From IMG/VR virus record IMGVR_UViG_2648501787_000012: 14,572 nucleotides of DNA; one strand, written 5' to 3'. Of the stretch, positions 1-14,572 are shown piece by piece. How positions within the stretch are numbered: position 1 is the first letter of the stretch; every line of letters starts with the position of its first letter. A program made the translations under genes and the position numbers. The DNA is from a virus. Lineage: Duplodnaviria > Heunggongvirae > Uroviricota > Caudoviricetes. The notes beneath the pieces were generated by a model, which saw only the letters and a program-made list of their open reading frames with translations, was not told the DNA's origin and did not search any database.

Positions 1-1260
1 ATGCCAAAACTCACAGATATGCAGATCCGCGCATGGATAAAGGCGGGAGACAGATTTGATGGCAAGGCAGACGGCAACGGCCTTTATATTTGCTACCCCA
101 AAAACTACACAGCCCCGTTCTGGCGATTCCGCTATAAGCTCGCAGGAAAGCAGCGGGCTATGGTTATAGGCTCTTACTCCGAACTGTCACTATCAAAAGC
201 CAGAGAAACAGCAAAAGAGCTGTCAGCCAGAGTTGCTCTTGGCTATGACGTAGCAGCAGAGAAACAGGAACGAAAAGCTGAAGCACTGGCAAAAATGGAG
301 GCTGAGAAAAACGCCATGCGTGTTTCAGATCTGGCCTCCGAATACTTCGAGCGCCAGATACTTCCGAGATGGAAACATCCCGATATCCTTCGCCGGAGAA
401 TTGATAAGGATATTAACCCCTGCATTGGGCATATGAAGGTAGAGGACGTTAAGCCACGCCACATTGACGACATGTTGAAAGGTATCGTTGACCGAGGAGC
501 ACCAACGATAGCAACAGATGTATTACGCTGGACACGCCGTATCTTTGACTACGGGATAAAACGCCACGCTCTGGAGATAAACCCTTGTTCAGCGTTTGAA
601 GTATCTGATGCTGGTGGTAAAGAGGTTTCCCGCGACCGTTGGCTAACTCGCGATGAGCTTATCAGGCTATTCGAGGCTATGCGCACCGCAAAAGGATTCA
701 GCCGCCAGAACGAACTGACATTTAAGCTATTGCTGGCACTATGCGTTCGTAAGATGGAGTTATGCGCCGCACGATGGGAAGAGTTTGATTTAGATGGTGC
801 GGTATGGCATTTGCCGGAAGAACGCAGCAAAAACGGAGACCCTATTGATATACCTCTACCTTCCCCAGCCGTTGAATGGTTGAGAGAGCTACACACCTTT
901 TCATGTAATAGCGCATGGGTGCTTCCAGCCAGGAAGATGCAAAACAGAATGATCCCACATATTCAGGAAAGCACTTTGCCCGTAGCACTGGCTAAGGTTC
1001 GCGCCGAAATGCCGGATGTGCCTAATTTCACGATTCACGACTTCCGACGCACCGCACGTACTCATTTAGCAGCGTTGGGTGTTGATCCTGTCGTGGCGGA
1101 ACGATGCCTCAATCATCGCATTAAGGGCGTAGAGGGGATTTATAACCGCCATCAGTATTTTGATGAGCGTAAAGCAGCACTGGCACAGTGGGCTGATCTG
1201 CTGGTGGCACTGGAAAGCGGAAAAGACTACAACGTAACGCCTCTCAGAAGGGCGAACTAA
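1..1260 (+). CDS. int: Tyrosine site-specific integrase (P4/CP4-57 type, with N-terminal arm-binding region)
   Basis: 419-aa ORF. C-terminal catalytic motifs readable in the translation: HDFRRTARTHL, LNH, and terminal GIYNRHQY carrying the catalytic Tyr. N-terminus (MPKLTDMQIRAWIKAG...GLYICYPKN...FWRFRYKLAGKQR) matches the arm-type DNA-binding fold typical of P4-family integrases. Window begins at the ATG, so the upstream att site is not visible. Confidence 0.93.
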   Translation: MPKLTDMQIRAWIKAGDRFDGKADGNGLYICYPKNYTAPFWRFRYKLAGKQRAMVIGSYSELSLSKARETAKELSARVALGYDVAAEKQERKAEALAKMEAEKNAMRVSDLASEYFERQILPRWKHPDILRRRIDKDINPCIGHMKVEDVKPRHIDDMLKGIVDRGAPTIATDVLRWTRRIFDYGIKRHALEINPCSAFEVSDAGGKEVSRDRWLTRDELIRLFEAMRTAKGFSRQNELTFKLLLALCVRKMELCAARWEEFDLDGAVWHLPEERSKNGDPIDIPLPSPAVEWLRELHTFSCNSAWVLPARKMQNRMIPHIQESTLPVALAKVRAEMPDVPNFTIHDFRRTARTHLAALGVDPVVAERCLNHRIKGVEGIYNRHQYFDERKAALAQWADLLVALESGKDYNVTPLRRAN

Positions 1261-1355
1261 CTGAATAGATTGAGCCTAGCTCGACGGGGCGAAAAGCGGG
1301 AAGCCTTACCGCCTGGCTCAATCACAAAATAAGGCGCAGCGTAAAAGGTGACGCA

Positions 1356-2321
1356 ATGAACGACTCTCATGAAACAACAGTGGTGCATAGAAATTTATGG
1401 CAGGAATCAGGTATTCCACCTTTGGACTACTGCACGATAGAGCGAGCATCAAAATTATTAAATTGTGAAATTGATGATATATGGCATTGGAAAGATAGAC
1501 TACATATAGACTTTTATGTCTATGCTGACTTTCTTGATTTCATTGAATCTGATGCCACCATCCACTTCAAAAAAGATGCTAATTTTATAACTGATTTATT
1601 ACTTATGTACCCAGAAGAAGTAAGGTTTACATTTCCTTTTCTTATTACCAGCGCAAGCAACGAAGTTTATATCCCAGCATCTGAAAGCGGTGCTTATGAG
1701 CTATTTTATGCACATAAACCACTGACAGTTGAAGACAGCGACAATAAAAATGTTTTTGAACAAATTGGCAAAAACTCTTTTATTGTAAGAAAATCAATTG
1801 CATGTGGATTGTTGCGTGTACGCGGTAGAACAACACGACATTATCATTCACAAGAATGTGGAGAACCATATGTGCGACTTGAAGCAACATTTGATTGTGA
1901 TCTATATAAATTCAAAATGCAAAGTTCCCAAATTCACCTGAGTAGCCTGTCAGATAAAAACATTTATATAACAAAGGCTGATTTAGAATACCTTCATGAC
2001 GCAAAGGTTAATGGAAGTTTTGACGCAGCTAAGAGCAAAAAACGATACGAAATGGCGGTAGAACAGGAACTAATACCTGAAATAAAAAATAGCAACCATA
2101 ATGCCGAGAGACATGCTGAAAACAGGGAAAAACTTTTCAAATCTGCAATATATCTTTTGTCAAAGTATCCTGATGAATGCCGTGGCAAAAAGAAAGAAAT
2201 AAGCCCTGAGAAGTGGCGGGATTGCATAGTGGCTCATAAAGACGAAATTCCACCGTTAGCAATCACAAATGAAGATGTGATTTTGAGACACTTACGTGCT
2301 GCCGCCAACGGTAAGGGGTAG
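1356..2321 (+). CDS. Hypothetical protein, AT-rich cargo gene in the int-alpA slot (function unknown; candidate defence/anti-defence)
   Basis: 321-aa ORF with a Shine-Dalgarno-like AAGGTGA 6 nt upstream of the ATG and an intrinsic terminator immediately downstream. The sequence is visibly more AT-rich than the flanking int and alpA genes (e.g. aaattgatgatatatggcattggaaagatagactacatatagacttttatg). I recognise no motif in the protein. Confidence 0.8.
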   Translation: MNDSHETTVVHRNLWQESGIPPLDYCTIERASKLLNCEIDDIWHWKDRLHIDFYVYADFLDFIESDATIHFKKDANFITDLLLMYPEEVRFTFPFLITSASNEVYIPASESGAYELFYAHKPLTVEDSDNKNVFEQIGKNSFIVRKSIACGLLRVRGRTTRHYHSQECGEPYVRLEATFDCDLYKFKMQSSQIHLSSLSDKNIYITKADLEYLHDAKVNGSFDAAKSKKRYEMAVEQELIPEIKNSNHNAERHAENREKLFKSAIYLLSKYPDECRGKKKEISPEKWRDCIVAHKDEIPPLAITNEDVILRHLRAAANGKG

Positions 2322-2336
2322 AGTAGCTAACTATTC

Positions 2337-2366
2337 AGGCACAGTATCATTACTGTGCCTTTTTAT
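2337..2366 (+). terminator. Rho-independent terminator after the cargo gene
   Basis: Perfect 9-bp stem AGGCACAGT (2337-2345) / ACTGTGCCT (2352-2360) with a 6-nt loop, followed by TTTTTATTGTT. Confidence 0.75.
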
Positions 2367-2391
2367 TGTTCATATATGTACAGATACTTCC

Positions 2392-2432
2392 TCCCGTAAC
2401 GAAGCAACAACTATCGCTAAGAGGTTACGGGA
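2392..2432 (+). promoter_or_regulatory. Inverted repeat in the alpA leader (possible operator or RBS-occluding hairpin)
   Basis: TCCCGTAAC (2392-2400) and its exact reverse complement GTTACGGGA (2424-2432) separated by 23 nt. The right arm lies between the likely SD (AAGAGG, 2419-2424) and the alpA ATG (2436). Confidence 0.3.
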
Positions 2433-2435
2433 AGC

Positions 2436-2639
2436 ATGAACACCGACACTATTCCTACAAAAGGCTATATCAGACGCTTCCGCCTGGCTGAATTGCTGGG
2501 CGTTAGTGTATCCACCATCGACCGTAAAGTAAGAAACGGTTCACTACCACGTCCGGTAAAGCTGGGAGAAAAAATAACTGCGTTTGATGCGGTTGAGATT
2601 CACAACTGGCTGGCAGAACGCCGCGGGAAGGTGGCCTGA
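2436..2639 (+). CDS. alpA: AlpA/Vis-family helix-turn-helix transcriptional regulator (excisionase-like)
   Basis: 67-aa protein with a central HTH segment (RFRLAELLGVSVSTIDRKVRNGSLPRPVKLGEKITAFDAVEIHNWL), the size and pattern of AlpA/phage Xis-like regulators. Position immediately after int and cargo is typical of P4-like and PICI-like elements. Confidence 0.8.
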   Translation: MNTDTIPTKGYIRRFRLAELLGVSVSTIDRKVRNGSLPRPVKLGEKITAFDAVEIHNWLAERRGKVA

Positions 2640-3070
2640 TGGAAAAGAAAAACCGCCCATTACAGGCGGCTAATTCAGATATTCGCGTATCTGATGTTAC
2701 GCCCCTGACAAAATCCCTTCAAGCACCAAAGCGCACACCGAAAAAGCATCGTGCCAGAGTCTATATGCTGCGTACTGGTATAGAGGGATGGACAGAAAAT
2801 GACATTCTTCGCTACTGCCGTCTGTCTTCTGGTCGTAACTATGCAACAGAGTTAGAACGCCAGCTTGGAATCACTCTGGAGCGTATCGACGAAAAGAATC
2901 CTGATGGTATCGGAACACACCTTCGCTACCGTTTCTCCTGCCGTGGTGATGTTCTGAAAGTGATCACTCATGTTAACCATCTTGCGAACATAAATGATCA
3001 CAACGGACTTTCTCAGCAGGAAATTGCCGACATTCTGAAACTCTACCCGAACGCGTTTAACGCCGCCTAA
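2639..3070 (+). CDS. Hypothetical protein
   Basis: 143-aa ORF whose ATG overlaps the alpA stop (cTGATGg), i.e. translationally coupled. Basic N-terminus (KRTPKKHRAR). No family recognised. Confidence 0.65.
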   Translation: MEKKNRPLQAANSDIRVSDVTPLTKSLQAPKRTPKKHRARVYMLRTGIEGWTENDILRYCRLSSGRNYATELERQLGITLERIDEKNPDGIGTHLRYRFSCRGDVLKVITHVNHLANINDHNGLSQQEIADILKLYPNAFNAA

Positions 3071-3082
3071 CGGAGACTGAAA

Positions 3083-3916
3083 ATGAACATCGAAAAAAGC
3101 AGATTAATTTCTGAGGCCGCCCCTCATCTGAACGCCTCTCTGGGCACAATTAACGGTAATGAATTTGCCGCAATTGTCCCGGTTATTCCTGGTCATATCG
3201 GTGGGCGTGAAACCAATATTGTTAGCGCAAAAGCGTTACACAAAGCGTTGGGCGTGGGAAAAGACTTCTCTACATGGATCACTGATCGCATCTCTGAATA
3301 TGACTTCACCATTGGGCACGATTACTCAGTCCATAAAACAATTTCCCCAAATTTGGGGAAAAGCCCGAATGGCGCGGCTTACAGCAAGATAAAGCACTCT
3401 GGCAGACCCGGCAAAGACTATCTGTTAAGTGTCGGAATGGCGAAAGAACTGGCAATGATCGAACGCAATGATCAGGGTCGCGCTATCCGCCGTTATTTCA
3501 TCCAGTGCGAGGAAGAATTACAGCGTACCGTGCCTGAAATCGCCGCCCGCTATCGTCGCCAGCTAAAAGCCCGTATTAGTGCCGCAAACAACTTTAAGCC
3601 AATGTGCGATGCGCTGAATATGGCCCGTGCCGAGATGGGGAAAATGACGCAGCAACACCACTACACAAACGAGAGCAATATGATTTCTCGTATCGTTCTT
3701 GGTGGGCTAACTGCTAAGCAGTGGGCGCGGATAAATGGCTATTCTGGCGAACCTCGCGACCATATGAACGCAGAACAGCTTGAGCACCTCTCATATCTCG
3801 AAAGCACCAATATCACGTTAATTGATATGGGCATGGAATATGAGCAGCGCAAAGGAGAACTCACCCGCCTGTCGCAACGCTGGCTCGCCAAGCGTCTGGA
3901 GGCGCTCAATGTCTAA
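3083..3916 (+). CDS. AntA/AntB-type phage antirepressor-like protein
   Basis: 277-aa ORF with SD GGAGA 6 nt upstream. N-terminal segment (NIVSAKALHKALGVGKDFSTWITDRI...DYLLSVGMAKELAMIERNDQGRAIRRYFIQCEEEL) resembles the AntA antirepressor domain as I recall it. Not verified by search. Confidence 0.7.
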   Translation: MNIEKSRLISEAAPHLNASLGTINGNEFAAIVPVIPGHIGGRETNIVSAKALHKALGVGKDFSTWITDRISEYDFTIGHDYSVHKTISPNLGKSPNGAAYSKIKHSGRPGKDYLLSVGMAKELAMIERNDQGRAIRRYFIQCEEELQRTVPEIAARYRRQLKARISAANNFKPMCDALNMARAEMGKMTQQHHYTNESNMISRIVLGGLTAKQWARINGYSGEPRDHMNAEQLEHLSYLESTNITLIDMGMEYEQRKGELTRLSQRWLAKRLEALNV

Positions 3917-4088
3917 GCCAACAGGAACACCACAACCACAAAAACGCTACAAAGATGCCCACGGAGCACTCGTTACTGTCGAAAGCGTGTCTCACAACCG
4001 AGTGACGTTTTATCGCGACGGGTATCAATCGCCATGCGTACAACCGCTGGCGCGTTTCATGAAGGAGTTCGCGGAGGTTAACCAATGA
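3909..4088 (+). CDS. Small hypothetical protein (59 aa)
   Basis: ATG at 3909 overlaps the upstream stop (ATGTCTAA) and is preceded by a strong SD, GGAGG at 3898-3902. The track ORF 3822..4088 is in the same frame, but its first Met has no RBS and would overlap the upstream gene by about 95 nt. Confidence 0.55.
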   Translation: MSKPTGTPQPQKRYKDAHGALVTVESVSHNRVTFYRDGYQSPCVQPLARFMKEFAEVNQ

Positions 4089-5152
4089 TACCCGTCCAGA
4101 AGAAGACATTTTCACTGGCTGGTATGTCGCCAAAATCCAGCAATATGACGGCAAAGTCAGGCATTAATACAGCAGATACAAGCAAAGTTTATCATTTGCT
4201 GGTGGTCGGAACGGATGCCTTAACCATACCAGAAATCTCGGGCGATGATATTAGCATTGAGAAGGTCAGCGGCTGCGCCAGAAAATTTCTGGTCGTAGAT
4301 GATGTCTTCCGCTCGCGTAGTGACTCCACAAAAACCTTCATCCGCGCGCGTGACGTTAACGAAATGAGCGCGATGTACTGTGCATCTGGTGCTTCCAATA
4401 GCGAGTTTTCGGAGTCCATAAAAAAGAGCTTGCCGTTATGCGGCAACACGGTTTATGGTTATAAGGCACCTCATAAAACGGGTGCCGGGATTGGCGTCCT
4501 GGTAAATCGAATGGCGACATATGACGCGCCGAGCGTCTTTTTTTATGTCGTAGGTCTGACTCACCCATTTTTTGGGCGTTGGTGTATAATCCAGCGCCTT
4601 TGTCAATCAATGGTGGCTCAGGCAGGGGCTTCTTCGGAAGCGCCGGTATCCATTCGAGCCGGTTACGCCAACCCTGTCTGGGCTACCACCAGCGAAATTG
4701 GCGTTTCCGGTGGTAGCGTTACATGCTATCGAATGGAGGCTGCCACATGCTGGCTACTACCCCTACCCAAAAACCGCAATTTATCTGGATTATCGCCGCA
4801 GTTCGCCGCGATTGCCCGACAATTACCGCCAGAATTCATCATATTGCTGCCGAGTCTGAACGCGATGCTCGCCGTTCTCTGGTGCGCGATCACGTCTGCT
4901 TTTTTGCTGGTCGTATCCGCATGGAGGTGGCACATGATTAAAACCTACGATGTGCATATGGATCCCCTCGAACGCACAAGCCAGATCATCACACTGACAG
5001 AAGTGATTAACGACATTCTGGTGAGCAACTCTCCCTCACGAGACGAAAGACTGAAGGCGTTACTCGCGATATTGGATCTCGCCGTTCGTGACGTTCATTT
5101 CCTGCTGGAAGGTGGCGAAATGCCAGTAAAAACGGGGGCAACCAATGAATAA
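4085..5152 (+). CDS. Uncertain long ORF (355 aa), probably a chimeric open frame rather than one protein
   Basis: ATG at 4085 overlaps the upstream stop (ATGA) and has a strong SD (GGAGG 4073-4077). Codon choice looks coding-like from 4085 to about 4580. The same frame then runs without a stop through the candidate RNA region and through the Icd-like gene (different frame) where its codons look poor (cta cta ccc cta ... tta), and merges with the 72-aa ORF at 4934. Either a real 5' gene whose end is obscured (frameshift/pseudogene) or a fortuitous open frame. Confidence 0.3.
4595..4725 (+). ncRNA. Candidate CI/C4-type antisense immunity RNA (P4 CI RNA / P1 C4 / IsrK-like)
   Basis: Perfect -10 TATAAT at 4585-4590 with a weak -35. 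GC-rich structured segment follows: UUCG-tetraloop hairpin GCTTC-TTCG-GAAGC (4628-4641), a short CCGG/CCGG stem (4643-4662) presenting the loop TATCCATTCGAG, and a 9-bp stem GCTACCACC (4682-4690) / GGTGGTAGC (4709-4717). Loop bases TCCATTCGA (4649-4657) are exactly complementary to TCGAATGGA (4729-4737), which overlaps the SD of the Icd-like gene, and to TCGAATGG upstream (4507-4514). Boundaries are approximate. Confidence 0.35.
4747..4941 (+). CDS. Host cell division inhibitor Icd-like small protein
   Basis: 64-aa ORF ([22 protein letters not shown]...[24 protein letters not shown]) with strong SD GGAGG (4735-4739) 7 nt upstream and E. coli-like codon choice. The ...SER.ARR.L.RD.V.FFAGR motif matches my recollection of the Icd-like family that follows C4-type RNAs. 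The track ORF starts at 4723, but 4747 has the RBS. Confidence 0.55.
   Translation: MLATTPTQKPQFIWIIAAVRRDCPTITARIHHIAAESERDARRSLVRDHVCFFAGRIRMEVAHD
4934..5152 (+). CDS. Small hypothetical protein (72 aa)
   Basis: ATG overlaps the Icd-like stop (cacATGATTAAa) and is preceded by GGAGGTGG (4924-4931). Good codon choice. Same frame as the uncertain 355-aa ORF, so it may be that ORF's C-terminus. Confidence 0.45.
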   Translation: MIKTYDVHMDPLERTSQIITLTEVINDILVSNSPSRDERLKALLAILDLAVRDVHFLLEGGEMPVKTGATNE

Positions 5153-5339
5153 CTCAATTAATACCCCTCGCCTTACGTCCGCACTTCAATTAATCGAGCA
5201 AGCAGCGGCTGTCCTGGTTGCTGTCAGTCTTTCGGCTGAAGAAATGGACGCTACTGATGTCGTGGATGCGATTAAAGCGTGCTCATCTTTGGTTAACGAT
5301 GCCCGTGCAGAGCTGGTAATTCTTGGGGGTGAAAAATGA
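5145..5339 (+). CDS. Small hypothetical protein (64 aa)
   Basis: Start overlaps upstream stop (ATGAATAA); part of a coupled small-gene array. Confidence 0.6.
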   Translation: MNNSINTPRLTSALQLIEQAAAVLVAVSLSAEEMDATDVVDAIKACSSLVNDARAELVILGGEK

Positions 5340-5599
5340 ATATCAACTTAATTTATCGTCATCCGTGTGAGCTGGAAATTGAATCATTGCTGAGCCGTGA
5401 AGAACCATATCCAGACACATTCACTCTTGCAGATCGCACGACTGAACGGCTTACCAGAGCGCGCACAGGTCTGGTTCATGTGATGAATGAGATTCTTCCA
5501 TCGGTGGGAGGGGAACAGGCGACAGTAATCACTAGCTGGCTACAAAAAGTTACCTCTCTGATAGATATCAGTTTAATCGATGCGGAGAGTGCGAAATGA
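5336..5599 (+). CDS. Small hypothetical protein (87 aa)
   Basis: Start overlaps upstream stop (ATGA); same array. Confidence 0.6.
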   Translation: MNINLIYRHPCELEIESLLSREEPYPDTFTLADRTTERLTRARTGLVHVMNEILPSVGGEQATVITSWLQKVTSLIDISLIDAESAK

Positions 5600-5817
5600 C
5601 CAACATCCAGCTCATTGAAGCGCAATGTCGCATCGAACAGGTTCAGACTGTTTTAGGGTTCTGGCTTGAAGGGGCCAGCCCCAGCAACAGAGACAAGTTA
5701 ATGATTGGCGCGGTTATGTCACTGCTCAATGGCGTACCAGAAGCTATTCAGGAAGCAGACGAATTGTTGGGCAAATATGAGTTACAGAATCATTCAGGCG
5801 AGGCGAAACATGAATAA
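5596..5817 (+). CDS. Small hypothetical protein (73 aa)
   Basis: Start overlaps upstream stop (ATGA); same array. Confidence 0.6.
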   Translation: MTNIQLIEAQCRIEQVQTVLGFWLEGASPSNRDKLMIGAVMSLLNGVPEAIQEADELLGKYELQNHSGEAKHE

Positions 5818-6412
5818 TTTCTTAACTTTCCAGGCAGAAGCAACGCCTGACGGCGTAAACATCATGCACCGCAGCAACGATGGCATGACAGAACGCGTTG
5901 AGACCGTCTCATATATTGATGCCGTAAATCGTCTGGATGCCGGGGATTATGACGATAAACCAGATGAAGGTATGTCAATACATCTCGCTATTGCCGATGG
6001 CGGCAACCAGGGATATTTCGATTACACATCACAGCATAACGTCATTATGTGGAGATGGTTGATCGCAACAGTATTCATGCTGGAAATGAGAGAGGAAAAC
6101 GGCACTGTCAGCATCATTGATGATACTGGCAATCCTTCCGAAGTGGCTGTTTATTCCAACGGCATCGTCGCCATGCCGCTGTATCCAGTAGCAGAGCGCC
6201 TCGCTATGGCAAACAACATTGAGGGCGCGATGATAGAACGTTTTGGCATCGAGTCTGGCACAGAACGCTCCATCATTTTCTACAGAGCCATGATGGATGT
6301 GGAACAAGGAGCACTGACTCCATTTGGTCGTGAAACGCTTGCTGAACTTCACAACAGCTTTATAGCTGAACTGAATGAAAACGGCATGCCATCGGAACCA
6401 GTGACGCACTGA
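5810..6412 (+). CDS. Hypothetical protein (200 aa)
   Basis: ATG at 5810 overlaps the upstream stop (ATGAATAA) and has a GGCGAGG SD-like sequence. The track ORF start at 5705 would overlap the upstream gene by over 100 nt and lacks an RBS. Confidence 0.65.
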   Translation: MNNFLTFQAEATPDGVNIMHRSNDGMTERVETVSYIDAVNRLDAGDYDDKPDEGMSIHLAIADGGNQGYFDYTSQHNVIMWRWLIATVFMLEMREENGTVSIIDDTGNPSEVAVYSNGIVAMPLYPVAERLAMANNIEGAMIERFGIESGTERSIIFYRAMMDVEQGALTPFGRETLAELHNSFIAELNENGMPSEPVTH

Positions 6413-6422
6413 GGATGGAACC

Positions 6423-6764
6423 ATGATTACTAAAAATTTCCGACTGAATGCGCTGGCAAATAAGTATGCGTCAGCACTGTATAACCACATTACCTCCACC
6501 AGCGGCGGGGACTATTTCATGATTGATGCGGACGGAGAGGCCGTACGTGTGGAAATCGTCAATGGAGTAAAAGGCGTTCGCAGCCTGATCGATAGTTACG
6601 CACTGGCAGCCATGAAAGTGTTCTACCCGCAGTGGGAAACCGTGGGGATCGAGCTTCTTGATCGTTGCGTCACTAAGGACAGATTGACTGACGTCGGGCG
6701 TGAGATATGGCAAAGCATGGTTAATGACATGGGCGCAACTGTAGCGGGAGGTTCTCATGCGTGA
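6423..6764 (+). CDS. Hypothetical protein (113 aa)
   Basis: ORF with SD-like GAGGATGG upstream of the ATG at 6423. Confidence 0.65.
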   Translation: MITKNFRLNALANKYASALYNHITSTSGGDYFMIDADGEAVRVEIVNGVKGVRSLIDSYALAAMKVFYPQWETVGIELLDRCVTKDRLTDVGREIWQSMVNDMGATVAGGSHA

Positions 6765-7128
6765 AAATGCAGAAATGGCGCTTAGCTCCGCAATCGGAGA
6801 GCAGGTGGCAAAGATTGCTGGTGCTGTGTGGATTCATAACCTTCATTCTACTGGTGAAGAGAAAATGGCAATTCAGACGCCAGAGGGACGCACTATTACT
6901 ACATCTCTGAAGCCGTCAGATGTTTGTGATCTGATTTGCGCATTCATGTACCCAGCAATGAGGACTGTCCACGGCGATAAGTGGAAACTTGCGACAACCG
7001 CTGAATTTGATATGTGGCTAAACAATGATGGCATGCTGACTGATTACGGAATAACCAAGTGGCAGATGCTGGTTAGCCATATCGCAAACGCTATAGACCA
7101 CGTGGGGTACGGTGATGCGAAACATTGA
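6757..7128 (+). CDS. Hypothetical protein (123 aa)
   Basis: Start overlaps upstream stop (ATGCGTGA); its 3' end overlaps the primase start. Confidence 0.65.
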   Translation: MRENAEMALSSAIGEQVAKIAGAVWIHNLHSTGEEKMAIQTPEGRTITTSLKPSDVCDLICAFMYPAMRTVHGDKWKLATTAEFDMWLNNDGMLTDYGITKWQMLVSHIANAIDHVGYGDAKH

Positions 7129-9871
7129 TCTTATCCGTCAGGTTATCAGTGCGTCTGAAAACAACTGGCCTCATGTGCTGGGCTGCCTGAACATAAATGT
7201 CCCTGACTCTCCGCGCCGTCATGCTCCCTGCCCTGCATGTGGGGGCAAAGATCGATTCCGGTTCGATGACAACGGGCGCGGTAGCTTCATCTGTAATCAG
7301 TGCGGCGCTGGTGATGGGCTGGATTTAATTAAACGCGTAAATAACTGCGACACAACAGAGGCGGCGCTGCTTGCCGCTGATGTTCTGGGTATTGATTACC
7401 GGACAACGGAAACACCAGAAGCCACCAGCCAGAAACGGGAACAACTGGAAACCGAGCGCCAGCAACGCGAACAGGAGCGCCTGAAAAGGGCGGAGAAGGA
7501 CGAACAACAAAGACGGGATACGTTTTCCCGTCAGTTTGATGACATGCGCAGAAAGGCTGTAAACGGCAAATCTGATTATCTGGTTGCGAAAGGGGTAGGT
7601 GATTTTACATTCCCCGTGTTGCCCGATGGATCTCTGTTGCTGGCGCTGGTGGATAAATCCGGCGCAGTCACAGCAGCACAGACTATTACCTCACATGGTG
7701 AAAAAAGACTCCTGACAGGTTCAGCAAAGCGGGGGGCATATCACGCCATAAACGCACCAGAAACAACACAGAGCATCTTAATCGCAGAAGGGCTGGCAAC
7801 GGCATTATCTGCCCATTTAATTCGTCCAGAGGCGCTGACAGTGGCGGCGATTGATGCCGGGAACCTGTTATATGTCGCCCAGGTACTGCGGGATAAATTT
7901 CCTTCAGCACAAATCATCATTGCTGCGGATAACGACCACAGCGAAGGAAGACAAAACACGGGGAGAATAGCAGCAGAAAAAGCAGCTTTATCTGTTTCTG
8001 GATGGGTGGCATTACCCCCGACAGGTCACAAAGCAGACTGGAATGATTACCACCAAAAACACGGCATTAAATGCGCCACAGAAGCGTTCAATAAGTCAAT
8101 GTACCAACCACAGGGTAATGGCGTGAAACAGGAGCCACAGACCATTGAGGGAAGCGATTTTAAGGTTATGGATACCGACCCACTGAAACCAAGAATAGAA
8201 AGCCGCGAGGATGGTATTTATTGGGTATCTCCGAGAGCTGACAGCCAGAGTGGAGAAATCATCAATAACGAAAGCTGGTTATGTTCTCCGTTAAGCGTTA
8301 TCGGTACTGGCAGAGACGATAAAGACCAGTATCTCATTCTTCGCTGGCTGTCGTTTGGTTCTGAAACGCCGACAACCGCTGCCATTCCACTGGCTGATAT
8401 TGGTGAACGTGAAGGATGGCGCACACTTAAAGCTGGTGGGGTAAATGTCACGACCAAAAGCAGCCTCAGAGCAATACTGGCAGACTGGCTACAACGCAGT
8501 GGCTCTCGTGAATTGTGGCGTGTTGCTCATGCCACTGGCTGGCAATGCGGAGCGTACATCATGCCTGATGGGGAAATCATCGGAACACCTGAAAATCCTG
8601 TGCTGTTCAGCGGGAGAAGCTCAGCCGCAGCCGGATATACCGTCTCAGGGAGCGCGCAAAGCTGGCGTGATAACGTGGCGCGTCTGGCCTTTGGTAACTA
8701 TTCAATGATGACCGGGATCGGCGCAGCACTGGCAGCACCATTGATTGGGCTGGTGGGCGCTGACGGGTTCGGCATTCATTTCTATGAGCAGTCGAGCGCA
8801 GGTAAGACCACCACGGCAAACGTGGCGAGCAGCTTATACGGCAACCCTGATTTACTGCGGCTGACGTGGTACGGAACCGCGCTGGGGCTGGCAAATGAGG
8901 CCGCCGCCCACAATGACGGACTAATGCCGCTTGATGAAGTTGGTCAGGGCGCTGATCCTGTCAGCGTTTCACAGTCTGCCTATGCGTTATTTAACGGTGT
9001 AGGGAAACTGCAAGGCGCTAAAGATGGTGGAAACCGGGATCTAAAACGCTGGCGTACAGTGGCAATCAGCACCGGAGAAATGGATTTAGAAACATTTATC
9101 GCTACTTCCGGGCGAAAAACCAAAGCCGGGCAACTGGTGCGACTGCTGAATATTCCGTTGAGTAAAGCAGTACGCTTTCACGATTACCAGAACGGAAAAC
9201 AGCACGCAGACGCACTGAAAGACGCTTACCAGCATCACCATGGCGCAGCCGGGCGTGAGTGGATTAAATGGCTGGCAGACCACCAGCAACAGGCTATTAA
9301 AACTGTTCGTGATTGCGAAAGCAGATGGAGAAGCCTGATCCCACCCGATTATGGTGAGCAGGTTCACCGTGTAGCCGCGCGATTTGCCATTCTGGAGGCC
9401 GCATTGTTGTTAGGCGAGGTTGTAACAGGCTGGGATGCTCAGACATGCCGTGATGCGATACAGCACAGCTATAACGCATGGTTGCGCGAGTTCGGCACAG
9501 GTAACAAAGAGCATCAGCAGATTATTGAACAAACGGAGGCATTTCTTAATGCCTATGGGCTTAGCCGTTTTGCACCATTTCCATACAGCCCGGCAGATTT
9601 GCCCATCAAAGATTTAGCCGGATACCGTCAGCGTGGAGAACATGACGAAAGCCCAATGATTTTCTACACATTCCCGGCCACATTTGAAAAGGAGATCGCA
9701 TGTGGTTTCAACGCAAAACAGTTTGCTGAAGTGTTGAAAAAAGCCGGGATGCTAACCCCACCAAACAGCGGTCGTGGATACCAAAGAAAATCACCACGTA
9801 TTCAGGGACGACAAATAAACGTTTATGTACTCAATTACCAGCCAGGAGATTATAACTCATCTGAAGAATGA
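7112..9871 (+). CDS. P4 alpha-type DNA primase/helicase (zinc ribbon + TOPRIM + P-loop NTPase)
   Basis: 919-aa ORF. N-terminal zinc ribbon CPACGGKDRFRFDDNGRGSFICNQCG; TOPRIM signatures ILIAEGLATALS and IIIAADNDHSEGR; Walker A-like FYEQSSAGKTTT in the C-terminal half. Domain order matches phage P4 alpha and related satellite primases. Confidence 0.93.
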   Translation: MMRNIDLIRQVISASENNWPHVLGCLNINVPDSPRRHAPCPACGGKDRFRFDDNGRGSFICNQCGAGDGLDLIKRVNNCDTTEAALLAADVLGIDYRTTETPEATSQKREQLETERQQREQERLKRAEKDEQQRRDTFSRQFDDMRRKAVNGKSDYLVAKGVGDFTFPVLPDGSLLLALVDKSGAVTAAQTITSHGEKRLLTGSAKRGAYHAINAPETTQSILIAEGLATALSAHLIRPEALTVAAIDAGNLLYVAQVLRDKFPSAQIIIAADNDHSEGRQNTGRIAAEKAALSVSGWVALPPTGHKADWNDYHQKHGIKCATEAFNKSMYQPQGNGVKQEPQTIEGSDFKVMDTDPLKPRIESREDGIYWVSPRADSQSGEIINNESWLCSPLSVIGTGRDDKDQYLILRWLSFGSETPTTAAIPLADIGEREGWRTLKAGGVNVTTKSSLRAILADWLQRSGSRELWRVAHATGWQCGAYIMPDGEIIGTPENPVLFSGRSSAAAGYTVSGSAQSWRDNVARLAFGNYSMMTGIGAALAAPLIGLVGADGFGIHFYEQSSAGKTTTANVASSLYGNPDLLRLTWYGTALGLANEAAAHNDGLMPLDEVGQGADPVSVSQSAYALFNGVGKLQGAKDGGNRDLKRWRTVAISTGEMDLETFIATSGRKTKAGQLVRLLNIPLSKAVRFHDYQNGKQHADALKDAYQHHHGAAGREWIKWLADHQQQAIKTVRDCESRWRSLIPPDYGEQVHRVAARFAILEAALLLGEVVTGWDAQTCRDAIQHSYNAWLREFGTGNKEHQQIIEQTEAFLNAYGLSRFAPFPYSPADLPIKDLAGYRQRGEHDESPMIFYTFPATFEKEIACGFNAKQFAEVLKKAGMLTPPNSGRGYQRKSPRIQGRQINVYVLNYQPGDYNSSEE

Positions 9872-9893
9872 GCTTCTTCATGTGCGTAGAAAA

Positions 9894-10010
9894 GGTGTTG
9901 GTTCAGTTGGTTCAGTTGGTTCAATTTGTAAAGAGTATTGTTTTATAAGGATTTTATTCTTTTTATTGAACCAACACTGAACCAACAACACGGTATTTTG
10001 AACCAACACA
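9894..10010. repeat. Iteron array, putative replication origin
   Basis: Three tandem copies of GTTGGTTCA (9897-9905, 9906-9914, 9915-9923), a 43-bp very AT-rich spacer (9924-9966), then three copies of the reverse complement TGAACCAAC (9967-9975, 9978-9986, 9999-10007) spaced 11 and 21 bp. Begins 23 bp after the primase stop. Confidence 0.7.
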
Positions 10011-10100
10011 ATGTGACTGAATTGATGCGCACAACACCTGGCTGGCATCAGAGAGTGTTTTACGAGACTTTCGTAAAATCCTGTGTACAAGGGCGTGACG

Positions 10101-10141
10101 TTTTTGAAAGTGAGCACTACGAAATTTTCGTAGTTCAAAAA
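10101..10141. promoter_or_regulatory. Nested palindrome, possible protein-binding site or cruciform
   Basis: Outer arms TTTTTGAA (10101-10108) / TTCAAAAA (10134-10141); inner arms CTACGAAA (10117-10124) / TTTCGTAG (10126-10133) around one central T; 8-nt asymmetric insert on the left. A further TTTCGTAA half-site lies at 10069-10076. Confidence 0.35.
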
Positions 10142-10329
10142 ACAGCCTCTGAGAAGTTGTTATGCCTGTTCAGCAAACCATCCGCATAGCTGATCGCGAA
10201 TCAAATTACCAATGGAGCCAGAAGCAAGGGCAGAACTGAAAAGCGCCTGCCGTAAAGAGTAATGCGACACCATAAATATAGTTTTTAGAGTCCATAAAAA
10301 ACCTGTCAAAACCTGACACACAGAACGAT

Positions 10330-10360
10330 GCCACCAGCTACTGAGCGGTGGCATTTTTTT
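10330..10360 (+). terminator. Rho-independent terminator at the module boundary
   Basis: Stem GCCACC (10330-10335) / GGTGGC (10347-10352) with an 11-nt loop, followed by ATTTTTTTG. Confidence 0.7.
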
Positions 10361-10392
10361 GTGCTATTTGTTTCATATTTTGCAATTACGAT

Positions 10393-10422
10393 GATGAATA
10401 TTGCGATTTGCGAAACTATAAT
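10393..10422 (+). promoter_or_regulatory. Candidate sigma70 promoter for the downstream operon
   Basis: Perfect -10 TATAAT at 10417-10422 about 35 bp upstream of a strong RBS and ATG (10456); the -35 (around 10393-10399) is poor. AT-rich intergenic context. Confidence 0.3.
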
Positions 10423-10455
10423 AACTGTTGTTTTATACAGTTCTAAGGGGGCGTT

Positions 10456-10617
10456 ATGGCTATTTCAGTAAAGCCGGTATTGATAAGTGAGAAGCAAATG
10501 GAAGCGATAAAGAAAATTCAGGAAGAGCAGCGTAAAAAATCAGGAATTGGAGTAGCGCCAACTCTGCATGAAATTGCACGAGGGTTAATAGATAAGGCGC
10601 TGGCAGGCTGTATGTGA
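10456..10617 (+). CDS. Small hypothetical protein (53 aa), possibly ribbon-helix-helix-like
   Basis: Not in the ORF track (under 60 aa). ATG at 10456 preceded by an excellent SD (TAAGGGGGCG); stop TGA at 10615-10617. The translation (MAISVKPVLISEKQMEAIKKIQEEQRKKSGIGVAPTLHEIARGLIDKALAGCM) loosely fits a strand-helix-helix pattern; weak inference. Confidence 0.45.
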   Translation: MAISVKPVLISEKQMEAIKKIQEEQRKKSGIGVAPTLHEIARGLIDKALAGCM

Positions 10618-10633
10618 AAACGGATGGCACCGC

Positions 10634-11095
10634 ATGGAACTAAAATTTATTGATAACCCGGTGCGATTACAGGCCTTTCTTAACGAGCCTGGCAATACCG
10701 AAAATATTGTTGAGCCGGGGCACACGTACTACATCAAGCCTGATGCGGTATATCTCGGCATCTACGAAGGATTAGTGCTGACAGGCGTTCATGAAGTGCG
10801 TAACTTCTGGCATAGCATTGTTGAATGCCATGCGGTGTACGACCCCGGATTCCGTGGTGAATATGCACTGCAAGGGCATCGATTGTTCTGCAAATGGCTT
10901 CTCGAAAACTCACCATTCCTTAACAGCATCACCATGGTTCCTGACACCACGAAATACGGACGGGCAATTATCCGTTTGCTTGGCGCTACCCGTGTTGGTC
11001 ACCTGGCCGATGCATATATCAGATGTGGTAAACCCGTCGGCGTAACGCTTTATCAGTTAACACGGCAACAATATAAGGAACTCAGCGAATGTTAA
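10634..11095 (+). CDS. Hypothetical phage protein (153 aa), first gene of the ejection-protein-like operon
   Basis: Globular-looking protein with several His/Cys. Its stop overlaps the next start (ATGTTAA). Positionally analogous to P22 gp14, but homology is not established. Confidence 0.75.
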   Translation: MELKFIDNPVRLQAFLNEPGNTENIVEPGHTYYIKPDAVYLGIYEGLVLTGVHEVRNFWHSIVECHAVYDPGFRGEYALQGHRLFCKWLLENSPFLNSITMVPDTTKYGRAIIRLLGATRVGHLADAYIRCGKPVGVTLYQLTRQQYKELSEC

Positions 11096-11766
11096 TTACC
11101 CATATAGCTCATAAACATCTCAATCGTGCCGTATACGAAAAAGGCGGTGATGGTGGTGCCTCTAAAGCCCAGGCGAAGGCCCAGCAGCAGGCAATTGATT
11201 TGCAGCGCGAGCAGTGGAATACGGTGATGAATAATCTCAAGCCGTATGCAGAAGTCGGATTGCCTGCTTTACAACAACTGCAAGGACTGATGACTCTGGA
11301 AGGGCAGAATAAAGCCGCGAATGATTTCTTTGGTTCTGGTTTATATAAAACACAGGCAGATCAGGCCCGTTATCAGAACCTTGTCTCAGCAGAAGCTACC
11401 GGGGGGCTTGGCTCAACAGCTACCAGTAACCAGTTATCTTCCATTGCGCCCATGCTTTATAACAATTGGCTTAGTGGGCAAATGCAAAATTATGGAAACC
11501 TGCTAAATGTCGGGATGAATGCGGCATCAGGGCAGGCAACAGCAGGGCAAAACTACGCCAATAATACCGGACAACTCTTGCAGGGGCTTGGCGCTATTCG
11601 TGCAGGTCAGGCGCAGCAGCCATCCAGTCTTGCGCGTGGTATTGGTGGGGCGGCATCAGGCGCTTTAGCGGGTGCGCAACTTGGTTCCGTTGTTCCGGGT
11701 ATAGGTAATGTCGCCGGGGCTATTGGTGGTGGGCTTATTGGTCTTGTTGGGGGGCTTGGATTCTAA
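11089..11766 (+). CDS. Putative phage DNA ejection/transfer protein (P22 gp7-like by size and composition)
   Basis: 225-aa protein, Q/A/N/G-rich and low complexity, with a glycine-zipper-like hydrophobic C-terminus (GIGGAASGALAGAQLGSVVPGIGNVAGAIGGGLIGLVGGLGF). Coupled to neighbours by overlapping stop/start. Confidence 0.8.
   Translation: MLITHIAHKHLNRAVYEKGGDGGASKAQAKAQQQAIDLQREQWNTVMNNLKPYAEVGLPALQQLQGLMTLEGQNKAANDFFGSGLYKTQADQARYQNLVSAEATGGLGSTATSNQLSSIAPMLYNNWLSGQMQNYGNLLNVGMNAASGQATAGQNYANNTGQLLQGLGAIRAGQAQQPSSLARGIGGAASGALAGAQLGSVVPGIGNVAGAIGGGLIGLVGGLGF

Positions 11767-13186: not shown

Positions 13187-13187
<1 letters not shown>
11766..13187 (+). CDS. Putative phage DNA ejection/transfer protein (P22 gp20-like by size and order)
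   Basis: 473-aa protein, Q/A/S-rich, start overlaps upstream stop (TAATG). Sizes of the coupled genes here (225, 473, 461 aa) parallel the P22 gp7-gp20-gp16 ejection-protein trio as I recall it (about 229, 471, 609 aa). Recollection, not an alignment. Confidence 0.85.

Positions 13188-14572
<1,385 letters not shown>

Follow-up and report, generated by a model that had tools for sequence, protein, structure and literature searches.

The DNA analysed here (the window, 14,572 nucleotides) is read as part of an EcCIMP1-type PICI of about 18.1 kb, inserted after the stop codon of yicC and built on the four-zone Gram-negative plan, with a late zone for which we propose a role in genome delivery. 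The probability that we give this reading as a whole is about one half. The kind of element is already published, as an EcCIMP1-like island that rides on P22-like phages. The zones follow one another in the order integration (integrase, int-alpA RNA, cargo gene and AlpA), Bro/immunity (AntA, DUF4222, Ash with the isrK and C4 RNAs, and Icd), replication (small ORFs, primase and iteron origin) and late. Every gene is on the plus strand, and the genes and RNAs listed in an earlier note on this DNA were all found.

The boundaries were defined by comparing a 100%-identical E. coli copy with the empty site of K-12. The copy contains an exact and discrete insertion of 18,129 bp between yicC and dinD, which starts straight after the yicC stop codon, and arm-type repeats flank both ends of the element. 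Judged from an intact sister copy, the element begins 188 bp upstream of the window and ends about 3.4 kb beyond it. The earlier note had covered positions 1-10360, which stops too early: the element does not end there, and late genes continue from 10456. The 18.1-kb insertion of the identical copy lacks genes for capsid, terminase, portal, tail and lysis. The discrete insertion and its gene content bear out the proposal that this is a satellite rather than the early genes of a full phage, and a complete prophage over the region is not present. The window differs from the copy L001 at 2 positions in 14,499 bp and diverges from it at 14500. Positions 2629-11926 are 97.4% identical in DNA to EcCIMP1, and the proteins from h143 to the gp7 homologue, which occur in the same order in both islands, are 96-100% identical to their EcCIMP1 counterparts.

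The integration zone opens with a tyrosine integrase (1..1260, plus strand; Pfam Arm-DNA-bind_3, Phage_int_M and Phage_integrase), whose target is the 3' end of yicC, to judge from where the island is inserted. It is followed by an int-alpA RNA motif (1269..1335, plus strand; Rfam RF02996, 60.6 bits with the gathering score at 35.8) and by a cargo ORF of 321 aa (1356-2321, plus strand) with its own terminator (2337-2360). The cargo ORF has a GC content of 34% and no match in Pfam, PHROGs, NCBIfam or PDB; PADLOC gave a weak match to PDC-S31 (0.002). In the related copy L084 a different cargo, of 281 aa, occupies the same position. The zone closes with an AlpA-family regulator/excisionase (2436..2639, plus strand; Pfam Phage_AlpA, 2e-8). 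This zone differs from that of EcCIMP1, in which the integrase is only 29% and AlpA 36% identical, the site is tRNA-Thr and the 321-aa cargo between int and alpA is missing.

The backbone shared with EcCIMP1 starts at a conserved 143-aa protein, h143 (2639..3070, plus strand), which is 98% identical to its EcCIMP1 counterpart, is present in most related islands and has no family match in Pfam, PHROGs, NCBIfam or PADLOC. The Bro/immunity zone contains an AntA/Bro-N antirepressor-like protein (3083-3916, plus strand; Pfam AntA, 3e-21; PHROG 'anti-repressor Ant') and a DUF4222 protein (3909-4088, plus strand; Pfam DUF4222, 2e-24), followed by the immunity region (4085..5152, plus strand). The Ash-family ORF that starts the region at 4085 (Pfam Phage_ASH, 3e-30) contains an isrK/seqA-like RNA (4466-4543; Rfam, 67 bits) and a C4/CI-type antisense RNA (4606-4693; Rfam, 79.5 bits), both on the plus strand and above their gathering scores. 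An Icd-like ORF (4723-4941, plus strand; NCBIfam NF033153, 6e-20) follows. The immunity region shows DNA similarity to P4 and, in two reading frames, 42-43% identity to the overlapping 'cI gene product' ORF of the P4 record.

Six translationally coupled ORFs of 64, 87, 73, 200, 113 and 123 aa, joined by overlaps of start and stop codons, begin the replication zone (5145..7128, plus strand). They are 97-100% identical to EcCIMP1, with three small proteins identical between the two islands. Their matches are to PHROGs without a function (phrog_20558, phrog_2196, 1515 and 37628), with nothing notable in Pfam, NCBIfam or PADLOC and no credible sequence match in PDB. The suggestion that helper exploitation may lie within the ORFs at 4934-7128 gained no support from these searches, which gave the ORFs no functional assignment. 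The primase-helicase (7112..9871, plus strand) combines a Zn-ribbon, a Toprim domain and DUF927 (Pfam; phrog_1139, 6e-178). P4 alpha matches its N-terminal 340 aa at 33% identity, and the EcCIMP1 primase is 99% identical. A repeat search pointed to a putative replication origin (9897..10009), in which the 9-mer GTTGGTTCA occurs six times. The copies form two mutually inverted clusters with an AT-rich spacer between them, the three direct copies lying at 9897-9929 and the three inverted ones at 9966-10009. An intrinsic-terminator-like hairpin with a run of seven T (10319..10363, plus strand) marks the border between the replication and late zones.

The conserved promoter/operator of the late zone (10371..10440, plus strand) was identified from an alignment of 32 upstream regions, those of the window and of 31 islands from other species. 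It contains the dyad TTTCAT..TTGCAAT..ATTGCG..GCGAAA, a -10 element TATAAT at 10417-10422 and, at 10425-10440, the LexA-box-like palindrome CTGTTGTTTTATACAG, the sole CTGT-N8-ACAG in the window. In sister copies and in Leclercia the half-sites of this box are conserved and the spacer is variable. The box is canonical in 9 of the 32 regions, and in 12 others of the 32 the palindrome is one base shorter. The first late-zone gene encodes s53, a conserved satellite-specific protein of 53 aa (10456..10617, plus strand) that is present in the 31 related islands at 40-75% identity (alignment of a 20-sequence subset). No PHROG, Pfam, NCBIfam or PDB match to s53 was found. Its AF2 model (pLDDT 77.6) has helices at residues 12-29 and 37-52, and a Foldseek structure search gave no informative match. 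In this model, the extended segment and two helices resemble a ribbon-helix-helix fold, for which s53 is a candidate only.

The helper-related operon occupies 10456-14499, inside the window and past the stretch that the earlier note had covered. Four genes follow s53, all on the plus strand and in the order of Kapi1_055-058. The first is a homologue of P22 gp14 (DUF2824, head-assembly/ejection-protein helper; 10634..11095; Pfam 2e-61; phrog_651), with 83% identity to Kapi1_055 and a dN/dS of 0.11-0.14 among satellite copies. The homologue of the ejection protein gp7 (11089..11766; Pfam P22_gp7, 2e-72; dN/dS 0-0.07) is 99.6% identical to EcCIMP1 and 57% identical to Kapi1_056, with no sequenced phage above 70%. 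The third gene is a homologue of gp20, the ejection protein of the periplasmic conduit (11766..13187; Pfam Inj_translocase, 1e-58; phrog_917; dN/dS 0.25-0.58). Its allele departs from that of EcCIMP1 past 11926, and only the N-terminal 188 aa align, at 48%. The last is a homologue of the ejection protein gp16 (13187..14499; phrog_29864 and phrog_770, 'DNA transfer protein'), which is broken at codon 438 in the window and is 701 aa long in intact sister copies. Over the full length it is 33% identical to the product of Sf6 gene 13 and to other gp16 proteins and 67% identical to that of phage N7; no phage gp16 exceeds 67% identity to the satellite protein. The break is the left end of an IS100 (IS21 family; 14500..14572, plus strand), placed by the divergence from L001. 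These 73 bp match a multicopy element upstream of IS100 istA, and the window terminates at an in-frame TGA within IS100.

Several observations suggest that the late zone is functional. All four ORFs are intact in four satellite copies (for gp16, L001, L084, L087 and L088, with a dN/dS of 0.08-0.18), and the dN/dS values range from 0 to 0.58 overall, which indicates, at the level of sequence comparison, purifying selection in the sister copies. The cassette lies inside the island, with the conserved s53 on one side and, on the other, r147 and perC, distal genes that are likewise conserved. About 180 complete genomes of E. coli carry it with the allele of the window and more carry it with other alleles, and it is kept on two integrase backgrounds and in Leclercia. 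The gp20 and gp16 alleles have been swapped relative to EcCIMP1 on otherwise near-identical backbones, and a common variant carries gp20 and gp16 alone behind the same promoter. The cassette is not a core feature, as E-protein genes occur in 3 of 66 species-level primase relatives; L005 and L034 have the full E cassette and L035 a gp20-gp16 fusion. The slot after s53 contains tape-measure, internal-virion or ejection proteins in 26 of the 31 related islands of other species.

Among the closest known systems is EcCIMP1, from E. coli MP1 (Pick, Stadel and Raivio, ISME J 2025; PMC11773190). Both islands have the s53 promoter and box, the P22-type gp14/7/20/16 cassette after the primase and a PerC-family gene near the distal end, and both lack capsid and terminase genes. 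Other distal accessory genes differ, gp20 is unrelated beyond its N-terminus, and the gp16 alleles are unrelated (906 aa with an SLT domain in EcCIMP1; 701 aa here, with no SLT domain detected), that of the window being cut by IS100. In experiments EcCIMP1 excised and was transduced, at low frequency only, solely with the P22-like helper Kapi1, and a dependence on alpA and int was shown. A Kapi1-like prophage was present in 2 of 21 EcCIMP1 carriers (PMC11773190). The four-zone plan is that of the published Gram-negative PICI model (Tommasini, Mageeney and Williams 2023; PMC10111431), with the same integration zone, Bro zone (AntA/Ash, C4/isrK RNAs), replication zone and dynamic late zone. In that model capsid genes are the commonest captured late genes, with examples from lambdoid helpers, whereas here and in the primase clade the conserved s53 opens a late zone of mostly genome-delivery proteins. 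The integrase also appears, tentatively, to fall outside the fis, hpt and helper-embedded groups of that study.

In P22 (Leavitt et al., mBio 2024; PMC10883804) the same four genes occur in the same order, and gp20 and gp16 are likewise the mosaic, fast-changing members in P22-like phages. Here, however, the genes are in a satellite, apart from portal, coat and tail genes, and upstream of them lie a promoter of their own and a small gene specific to the satellite. In addition, none of 50,697 phage records contained a close match to the gp7 or gp16 allele. SaPI operon I, as described from Ubeda et al. 2007 (pmid 17581119) in PMC6739421, is also a separate co-oriented operon downstream of the replication module with an SOS-box-type operator upstream. 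In that description its products are TerS and proteins for capsid size and packaging interference, rather than ejection proteins, and it is controlled by LexA, whereas the box here is only LexA-box-like and canonical in part of the family.

Two alternatives concern the nature of the element, and both appear very improbable. A P4-like satellite that exploits a P2-type helper and has lost sid, delta and psu would explain the features in common with P4, namely the integrase (25% identity), Vis/AlpA (35% to ORF88/Vis), the CI/C4 RNA immunity region with Icd/kil-like coding, the N-terminal primase domain and iterons by the primase gene. Direct comparison with P4 Sid, Delta and Psu gave no match at E < 0.6, as the earlier note had anticipated, and epsilon, gop/beta/cII and cos of P4 also had no match here. 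In the primase, DUF927 makes up the helicase half, with P4 alpha aligning over the N-terminal ~340 aa only, the virion genes are P22-type and not P2-type, and the near-identical EcCIMP1 uses a P22-like helper. Of the earlier label 'P4-like/PICI-like', then, the second half stands and the first does not. The P22-type virion genes could instead indicate a P22-like prophage in decay, or the fusion of a PICI with an adjoining prophage remnant, rather than one mobile unit; the corresponding region of EcCIMP1 was itself first annotated as an 'incomplete prophage' (PMC11773190). Against such a remnant, comparison with the empty yicC-dinD site shows an exact insertion, satellite-family genes lie on both sides of the cassette with no internal att-like junction, lambdoid early, terminase, portal, coat and tailspike genes are missing, and the sequenced circle junction of EcCIMP1 includes the cassette (PMC11773190).

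The other alternatives concern the role of the cassette. It is unlikely, though less so than the readings above, that the cassette is an interference or defence device, in which satellite-made variants of gp7, gp20 and gp16 act as poor or poisonous subunits, co-assembled into helper virions or placed in the cell membrane, and make the helper less infectious or keep incoming P22-like phages out, instead of delivering satellite DNA. EcCIMP1 adds to the superinfection immunity of Kapi1 lysogens (PMC11773190), which would fit interference equally well. The outlying gp7 and gp16 also speak for it, and so does a promoter with an SOS-box-like operator that may allow expression independent of the helper. 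Also, satellites commonly interfere with helpers, and PICIs carrying tail-assembly-inhibition systems are described in PMC11364771. However, Kapi1 titres from induced lysogens were unaffected by EcCIMP1 (PMC11773190), P22 hybrid phages function with foreign and very different sets of E proteins (PMC10883804), and complete, collinear, full-length genes under purifying selection fit working E proteins better than poisons. Less probable still is a passively captured piece of a helper late operon, without a satellite role and on its way to decay. Capture and subsequent loss of late genes is part of the published model (PMC10111431), most relatives have no cassette, and damaged copies exist (an internal deletion in L086; L084 and the window as other deleted or IS-hit copies). 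The intact ORFs and their dN/dS values, the distribution over E. coli genomes, integrase backgrounds and Leclercia, the replacement rather than erosion of alleles, and the delivery-type proteins of other phage morphotypes in the same slot all argue against passive capture.

The reading of a satellite that supplies its own genome-delivery proteins is inferred in part, from sequence comparison. By homology with the experimentally tested EcCIMP1, a P22-like (Lederbergvirus) helper triggers AlpA-dependent excision, and transfer occurs in helper particles. Comparison with Kapi1 and phage 720R6 showed no pac-like or terS-like similarity. At about 40 kb (Kapi1, 39,436 bp), a headful of the P22 type would have room for roughly two copies of an island of 18-20 kb (18,129 bp here; EcCIMP1, 19,963 bp), so that capsid-size redirection would not be needed, which would account for the 'missing' genes. 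The late zone (10371-14499) would form a separate operon behind the terminator and the conserved promoter with its LexA-box-like operator, encoding s53 and satellite versions of gp14, gp7, gp20 and gp16. With gp16 broken by IS100 in the source genome, the copy in the window is probably impaired in delivery. In intact copies the satellite E proteins would most likely load into helper procapsids and form the conduit for satellite DNA. Satellite particles would thereby gain an entry specificity unlike that of the helper. They could, for example, escape exclusion of the SieA type, whose targets gp20 and gp16 are the proteins to which SieA escape mutations map (PMC10883804).

Over positions 1-14499 there are only 2 mismatches between the window and E. 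coli strain 755, and at least 80% of the window is present in 183 of the 5,426 complete genomes of E. coli. The strain 755 element is placed between yicC and dinD, and comparison with the empty K-12 site gives an 18,129-bp insertion located exactly after the yicC stop codon. The element starts 188 bp before the window and, in this intact copy, ends approximately 3.4 kb past it. The core overlap with the chromosome is limited to a few bases around the stop codon of yicC. Near both island ends are 24-nt near-identical repeats, GTGTACATA-N3-GGTGTACATAAT, at positions 11920-11943 and 29851-29874 of the strain 755 locus (L001), which fall just outside the window. These repeats probably serve as arm-binding sites of the integrase, flanking attP when the element is circular. 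Inverted ATGTACA copies are also located just before int in this locus.

The annotated 18.1-kb island contains no coat, portal, terminase, tail or lysis genes. Thus, the complete prophage that the earlier note had set against its satellite interpretation fails as an explanation, and this absence, together with the exact insertion, supports a satellite rather than the early region of a prophage. A complete P22-like (Lederbergvirus) prophage, which would have a lambdoid early region, terminase, portal, scaffold, coat, tail hub and tailspike, was rejected on the same island, which has only homologues of gp14, gp7, gp20 and gp16 in common with the P22-like phage Kapi1 and with phage 720R6. The capsid, portal, protease and head-completion genes of cf-PICIs were neither annotated nor detected in the 18.1-kb island. 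The architecture is that of a PICI: one end carries an inward-facing integrase and then an AlpA-family regulator, a Bro-network zone (AntA/Ash) carries C4/isrK immunity RNAs, the replication module has its own primase with an adjacent origin, and the whole is a discrete island in the 10-20 kb range at a specific site that lacks capsid-shell, terminase, tail and lysis genes.

The individual features listed in the earlier note were recovered by matches in Pfam, PHROGs, NCBIfam and Rfam. All credible genes in the window are on the + strand, and no tRNA gene is present in the window. The integrase (1-1260; Pfam) is followed by the int-alpA RNA motif (1269-1335; Rfam), a 321-aa cargo ORF of 34% GC (1356-2321) with its own strong terminator (2337-2360), the AlpA-family regulator (2436-2639; Pfam), a conserved 143-aa ORF (h143), AntA (3083-3916; Pfam), a DUF4222 ORF and an Ash-family ORF (Phage_ASH; Pfam). 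The Ash ORF encloses isrK (4466-4543) and C4 (4606-4693), and these C4/isrK immunity RNAs (RF01695 and RF01394) score above the Rfam gathering score. Further downstream are an Icd-like ORF (4723-4941), six coupled small ORFs (5145-7128) and a Zn-ribbon/Toprim/DUF927 primase (7112-9871). The iterons beside the primase are real and consist of six copies of GTTGGTTCA, three direct (9897-9929) and three inverted (9966-10009). Past the iterons, at 10319-10363, is a terminator-like hairpin with a T7 run.

The cargo ORF with its terminator (1356-2360) lies between the int-alpA RNA motif and alpA. Searches of PADLOC, Pfam, NCBIfam and PHROG returned nothing usable for this ORF or for the distal ORFs; the best match of the cargo ORF was a weak one to PADLOC PDC-S31 (E 0.002). 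This interval looks like a cargo hotspot, because EcCIMP1, a PICI of E. coli MP1, lacks this gene and the island of E. coli Ecol_244 (L084) carries a different one. Among the small ORFs, the 123-aa ORF at 6757-7128 overlaps the primase start and contains TPEGRTITTSLKPSD, which resembles the first ubiquitin hairpin, TLTGKTITLEVEPSD. A ubiquitin relation was rejected, since the E value of 4e-15 against polyubiquitin is an artefact of nine repeats of approximately 5 bits each being summed, and against a single ubiquitin E was approximately 0.6. The single-sequence AF2 model of this ORF was of low confidence (pLDDT 46.7). By tblastn, this 123-aa ORF was restricted to islands in which gp14 and gp7 occur as well.

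The element is of a published and experimentally validated kind, the EcCIMP1-like PICI with a four-zone architecture. EcCIMP1 is 19,963 bp long, excises and circularises only in the presence of the P22-like phage Kapi1, requires its own int and alpA, and is transduced by Kapi1 at low frequency (PMC11773190). The gene order of the MP1 locus is identical to that of the window, the DNA is 97.4% identical over window 2629-11926, and the proteins from h143 through gp7 are 96-100% identical. The differences between the two are modular. The int and AlpA proteins are only 29% and 36% identical, which implies a different attachment site; the window has the added cargo gene; gp20 aligns over the N-terminus only (48%) and gp16 gives no match; and the distal accessory genes differ, with PerC at 53% identity. 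The window layout also matches the plan described for Gram-negative PICIs, which runs from an Integration zone through a Bro zone with C4/isrK RNAs and a Replication zone to a Late zone in which late genes of helpers have been captured (PMC10111431). Experiments demonstrate helper-dependent excision and transfer for EcCIMP1 with Kapi1 only; since the backbone is 97.4% identical, they can be extended to the window's island: by homology to this tested element, it would undergo helper-triggered excision dependent on AlpA and Int, replicate from its own primase and origin, and be transferred in the particles of a P22-like helper.

The earlier note had described the element as P4-like or PICI-like and had seen no sid, delta or psu genes. 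Searches of the whole island with the P4 proteins by tblastn and phmmer gave no match to Sid, Delta or Psu at E < 0.6, and none was found in Pfam or PHROG, so this absence holds. P4 epsilon likewise had no match in the whole island. The best match to the 19-nt cohesive end of P4 has 6 mismatches, and no similarity to a P2/P4-type cos region was found. The P4 matches that were found are to int (25% identical), Vis (35%) and the N-terminal 340 aa of alpha (33% identical to the island primase, E 1e-41), whereas the C-terminal half of the island primase fails to align and is a DUF927 domain. P4 immunity is based on a C4-type CI RNA, and the window has both Rfam C4 and isrK and P4 DNA and ORF similarity at 4513-4917. 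Because the P4 matches are limited to these parts, the island has P4-type immunity and primase ancestry but not P4-like helper exploitation; the PICI half of the earlier description stands. In this region, a P4 ORF annotated as the 138-aa "cI gene product" aligns at 42-43% identity in two frames (4580-4917), the first half in the Ash frame and the second in the Icd-like frame, and PHROG 6928 covers both frames likewise. The switch falls near 4745, just past the C4 RNA, and could represent a frameshift or two separate genes.

Rpp is a protein of solved structure, and its sequence is expected in the PDB. Among all PDB sequences, neither phmmer searches with the cargo ORF and each of the six small ORFs nor a profile search with s53, a 53-aa satellite-specific ORF, gave a relevant match to an Rpp-type protein. 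Nothing indicating Rpp/Ppi-type packaging redirection was found in Pfam or NCBIfam, with Ppi covered by those family searches only.

The earlier note had suggested that the helper-exploitation functions may lie in the unassigned small ORFs at 4934-7128 or outside the window. The helper-related genes are instead at 10456-14499, within the window and past position 10360, where the note's satellite region ends. A separate operon starts after the hairpin at 10319-10363, with s53 (10456-10617) followed by homologues of the P22 ejection proteins. The P22-type set is complete and in the order gp14 (DUF2824, 2e-61), gp7 (Pfam, 2e-72), gp20 (Inj_translocase, 1e-58) and gp16 (phrog_770/29864), with Pfam and PHROG matches of 1e-58 to 2e-72. 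The gp16 homologue aligns over its full length with those of Sf6 and other phages. The gene order is that of Kapi1_055-058, and identity to Kapi1 falls from 83% in gp14 to 57% in gp7 and 34% in gp20 (N-terminus only), and is undetectable in gp16. The closest phage homologues share 67% identity in gp16 (phage N7) and no more than 70% in gp7.

The window diverges from its sister sequence at 14500, and its last 73 bp (14500-14572) correspond to the left end of IS100, an IS21-family element. This insertion truncates gp16 at codon 438 in the source genome of the window, which ends on an in-frame TGA inside IS100, and the apparent 461-aa ORF is a truncation product. In sister genomes gp16 is intact at 701 aa. 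All four cassette genes are intact in four satellite copies that differ by 1-2% in DNA, and the dN/dS values among these copies were 0.11-0.14 for gp14, 0-0.07 for gp7, 0.25-0.58 for gp20 and 0.08-0.18 for gp16. The cassette is inside the island, flanked by s53 and by distal genes that are both conserved in the family. Window 9872-14499 had matches in 1,542 of the 5,426 genomes, with the full allele set in 180. In other classes the break falls at 11926 (the EcCIMP1 allele) or between gp20 and gp16, and in a further class s53 is directly followed by gp20 (488 aa) and gp16 (701 aa), with no other cassette gene, under the same promoter, as in L084. We recognise the late operon as a selected, allele-swapping ejection-protein cassette carried by satellites. 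Among the ejection proteins of P22-like phages, gp20 and gp16 vary the most, mutations in them allow P22 to escape SieA exclusion, and foreign E-protein sets function in P22 hybrids (PMC10883804).

L084 (11585-15334) is a common variant at the yicC site that keeps gp20 and gp16 only; it lacks gp14, gp7, h113 and h123, the cargo gene between its int and alpA is a different one of 281 aa, and the adjoining dinD is missing. H75, which has a gp16 allele 99% identical to that of the window, was considered as a helper prophage and rejected, as it is an internally deleted EcCIMP1-type island. The island of E. coli ETEC6334 (L086, 10635-22128) has the EcCIMP1 integrase and an internal deletion from the 200-aa ORF into gp20; the primase, origin, s53, gp14 and gp7 are lost, and gp16 of the window's allele is intact and 99% identical. 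In L001, the gene directly downstream of gp16 (27311-27700, - strand, opposite to gp16, approximately 2.7 kb past the window end) encodes a 129-aa protein that has several hydrophobic segments; sieA occupies this place on the P22 map. This protein has no detectable similarity in PHROGs, Pfam or PADLOC.

The 100 bp upstream of s53 is conserved in 32 regions, the window and 31 islands of other species, and the promoter/operator itself (10371-10440 in the window) is also present in L001, L005, L034, L083, L084, L087 and L088. The region contains a dyad, TTTCAT..TTGCAAT..ATTGCG..GCGAAA in the window with ATGAAA in most relatives, and a -10 element, TATAAT, with a palindrome starting two bases later. 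This palindrome, CTGTTGTTTTATACAG at 10425-10440, is an exact CTGT-N8-ACAG box and resembles a LexA box; it is the sole occurrence in the 14.6-kb window, where 0.23 are expected. In the E. coli sister copies and the Leclercia island the half-sites are kept and the spacer is variable. Among the 32 upstream regions the box is canonical in only 9, one base short in 12 and reduced to the left half-site in 11, so a LexA box was rejected as a family-wide feature, and LexA control is offered as a hypothesis for the window's lineage and not as a family rule. Operon I of SaPIs is LexA-controlled (Ubeda 2007, as cited in PMC6739421), and the s53 operon with its LexA-box-like palindrome recalls it. The s53 protein had no match in PHROG, Pfam or NCBIfam, and neither a profile search of the PDB nor Foldseek with its AF2 model was informative. 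The model (pLDDT 77.6) predicts an extended N-terminus and two helices, a pattern compatible with a ribbon-helix-helix fold.

A primase scan over one genome per species gave 77 loci. The backbone in most Enterobacterales relatives consists of h143, AntA, DUF4222, Ash, Icd, h200, h113, primase, s53, r147 and PerC. Among the scanned loci the full ejection cassette occurs only in an Escherichia (L005) and a Leclercia (L034) locus, and a primase-related island of Pectobacterium sp. (L035, 15130-19407) has a single 1,425-aa gp20-gp16 fusion (phrog_2534 and phrog_770/29864). By gene clustering, s53 opens a variable slot, the contents of which were identified by PHROG and Pfam. They include tape-measure proteins (TMP_3/phrog_1107, 584-1245 aa) with a 108-aa companion upstream, "lytic tail" or tape-measure proteins with an SLT domain, tape-measure-like proteins with an injection transglycosylase, podovirus-like internal virion protein sets (phrog_418, 1044/992, 3003/342 and 684) and a baseplate hub. 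Such a gene lies within 1.4 kb downstream of s53, mostly at 20-360 bp, in 26 of 31 species-level islands. These genes were seen in L006-L067 from Enterobacter, Klebsiella, Pantoea, Erwinia, Serratia, Pectobacterium and others. In several islands a tape-measure gene, with no other tail genes, lies between s53 and distal genes (a pRiA4b ORF-3 family gene and its neighbour) that also mark the EcCIMP1 end; the tape-measure gene is therefore inside the island.

No paper stating this pattern was found in the literature searched. Pick et al. name "DNA transfer/DUF2824" genes only as packaging candidates (PMC11773190), and Tommasini et al. found capsid genes to be the commonest among captured late genes (PMC10111431). 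Our reading, to which we give a probability of roughly 0.3 and which is accordingly tentative, is that in this Enterobacterales satellite clade the post-primase zone is a dedicated, swappable slot that holds genome-delivery proteins of the helper's type and re-equips helper particles with the satellite's DNA-entry machinery, possibly crossing envelopes that exclude the helper. This strategy would be distinct from capsid-size or terminase redirection. The slot would open with the conserved promoter/operator and s53, its contents would follow the type of helper ridden, and cells protected by SieA-like or tape-measure-targeting exclusion might be reached.

P22-like phages package by headful with a redundancy of a few percent. 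Two copies of the island amount to 36.3 kb, and two of EcCIMP1 to 39.9 kb, with a helper genome of 39.4 kb. Packaging would thus be by headful from concatemers with no capsid-size redirection required, and with a satellite dimer filling a P22-type head the lack of capsid-redirection genes would be expected. Comparison by short-word blastn and tblastn with Kapi1 and phage 720R6, the latter chosen as being among the strongest phage DNA matches to the cassette, gave no shared packaging signal outside the ejection genes, and nothing in the island is similar to the terS/pac-like region of either phage.

The products of the late operon would be built into helper procapsids and form a DNA conduit, and their divergence, mostly in gp20 and gp16, may give satellite particles an entry specificity different from that of the helper, for example against SieA-type exclusion in helper-lysogenic recipients. 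The main rival is that the cassette interferes with or excludes the helper. EcCIMP1 does add superinfection immunity, which would fit such a role, but helper titres are unchanged with EcCIMP1 (PMC11773190), and the cassette proteins look like working E proteins. Passive capture of the cassette, the lesser rival, is weakened by the dN/dS values and by the swapping of alleles. Ejection genes that are kept, selected and allele-swapped, together with the slot in relatives, suggest that DNA entry by helper particles is a step that some satellites tune.

The island as first described is largely explained by the published work on EcCIMP1-like PICIs. This analysis adds the relocation of the "missing" helper-related genes to 10456-14499 and the lead that genome-delivery proteins occupy this slot across the family of satellites. 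If DNA-entry tuning is true, it would be a new class of helper manipulation and would bear on the access of satellites to cells under prophage exclusion systems. In addition, swapping the cassette would then be a simple handle on the delivery range of PICI-based transducing particles.
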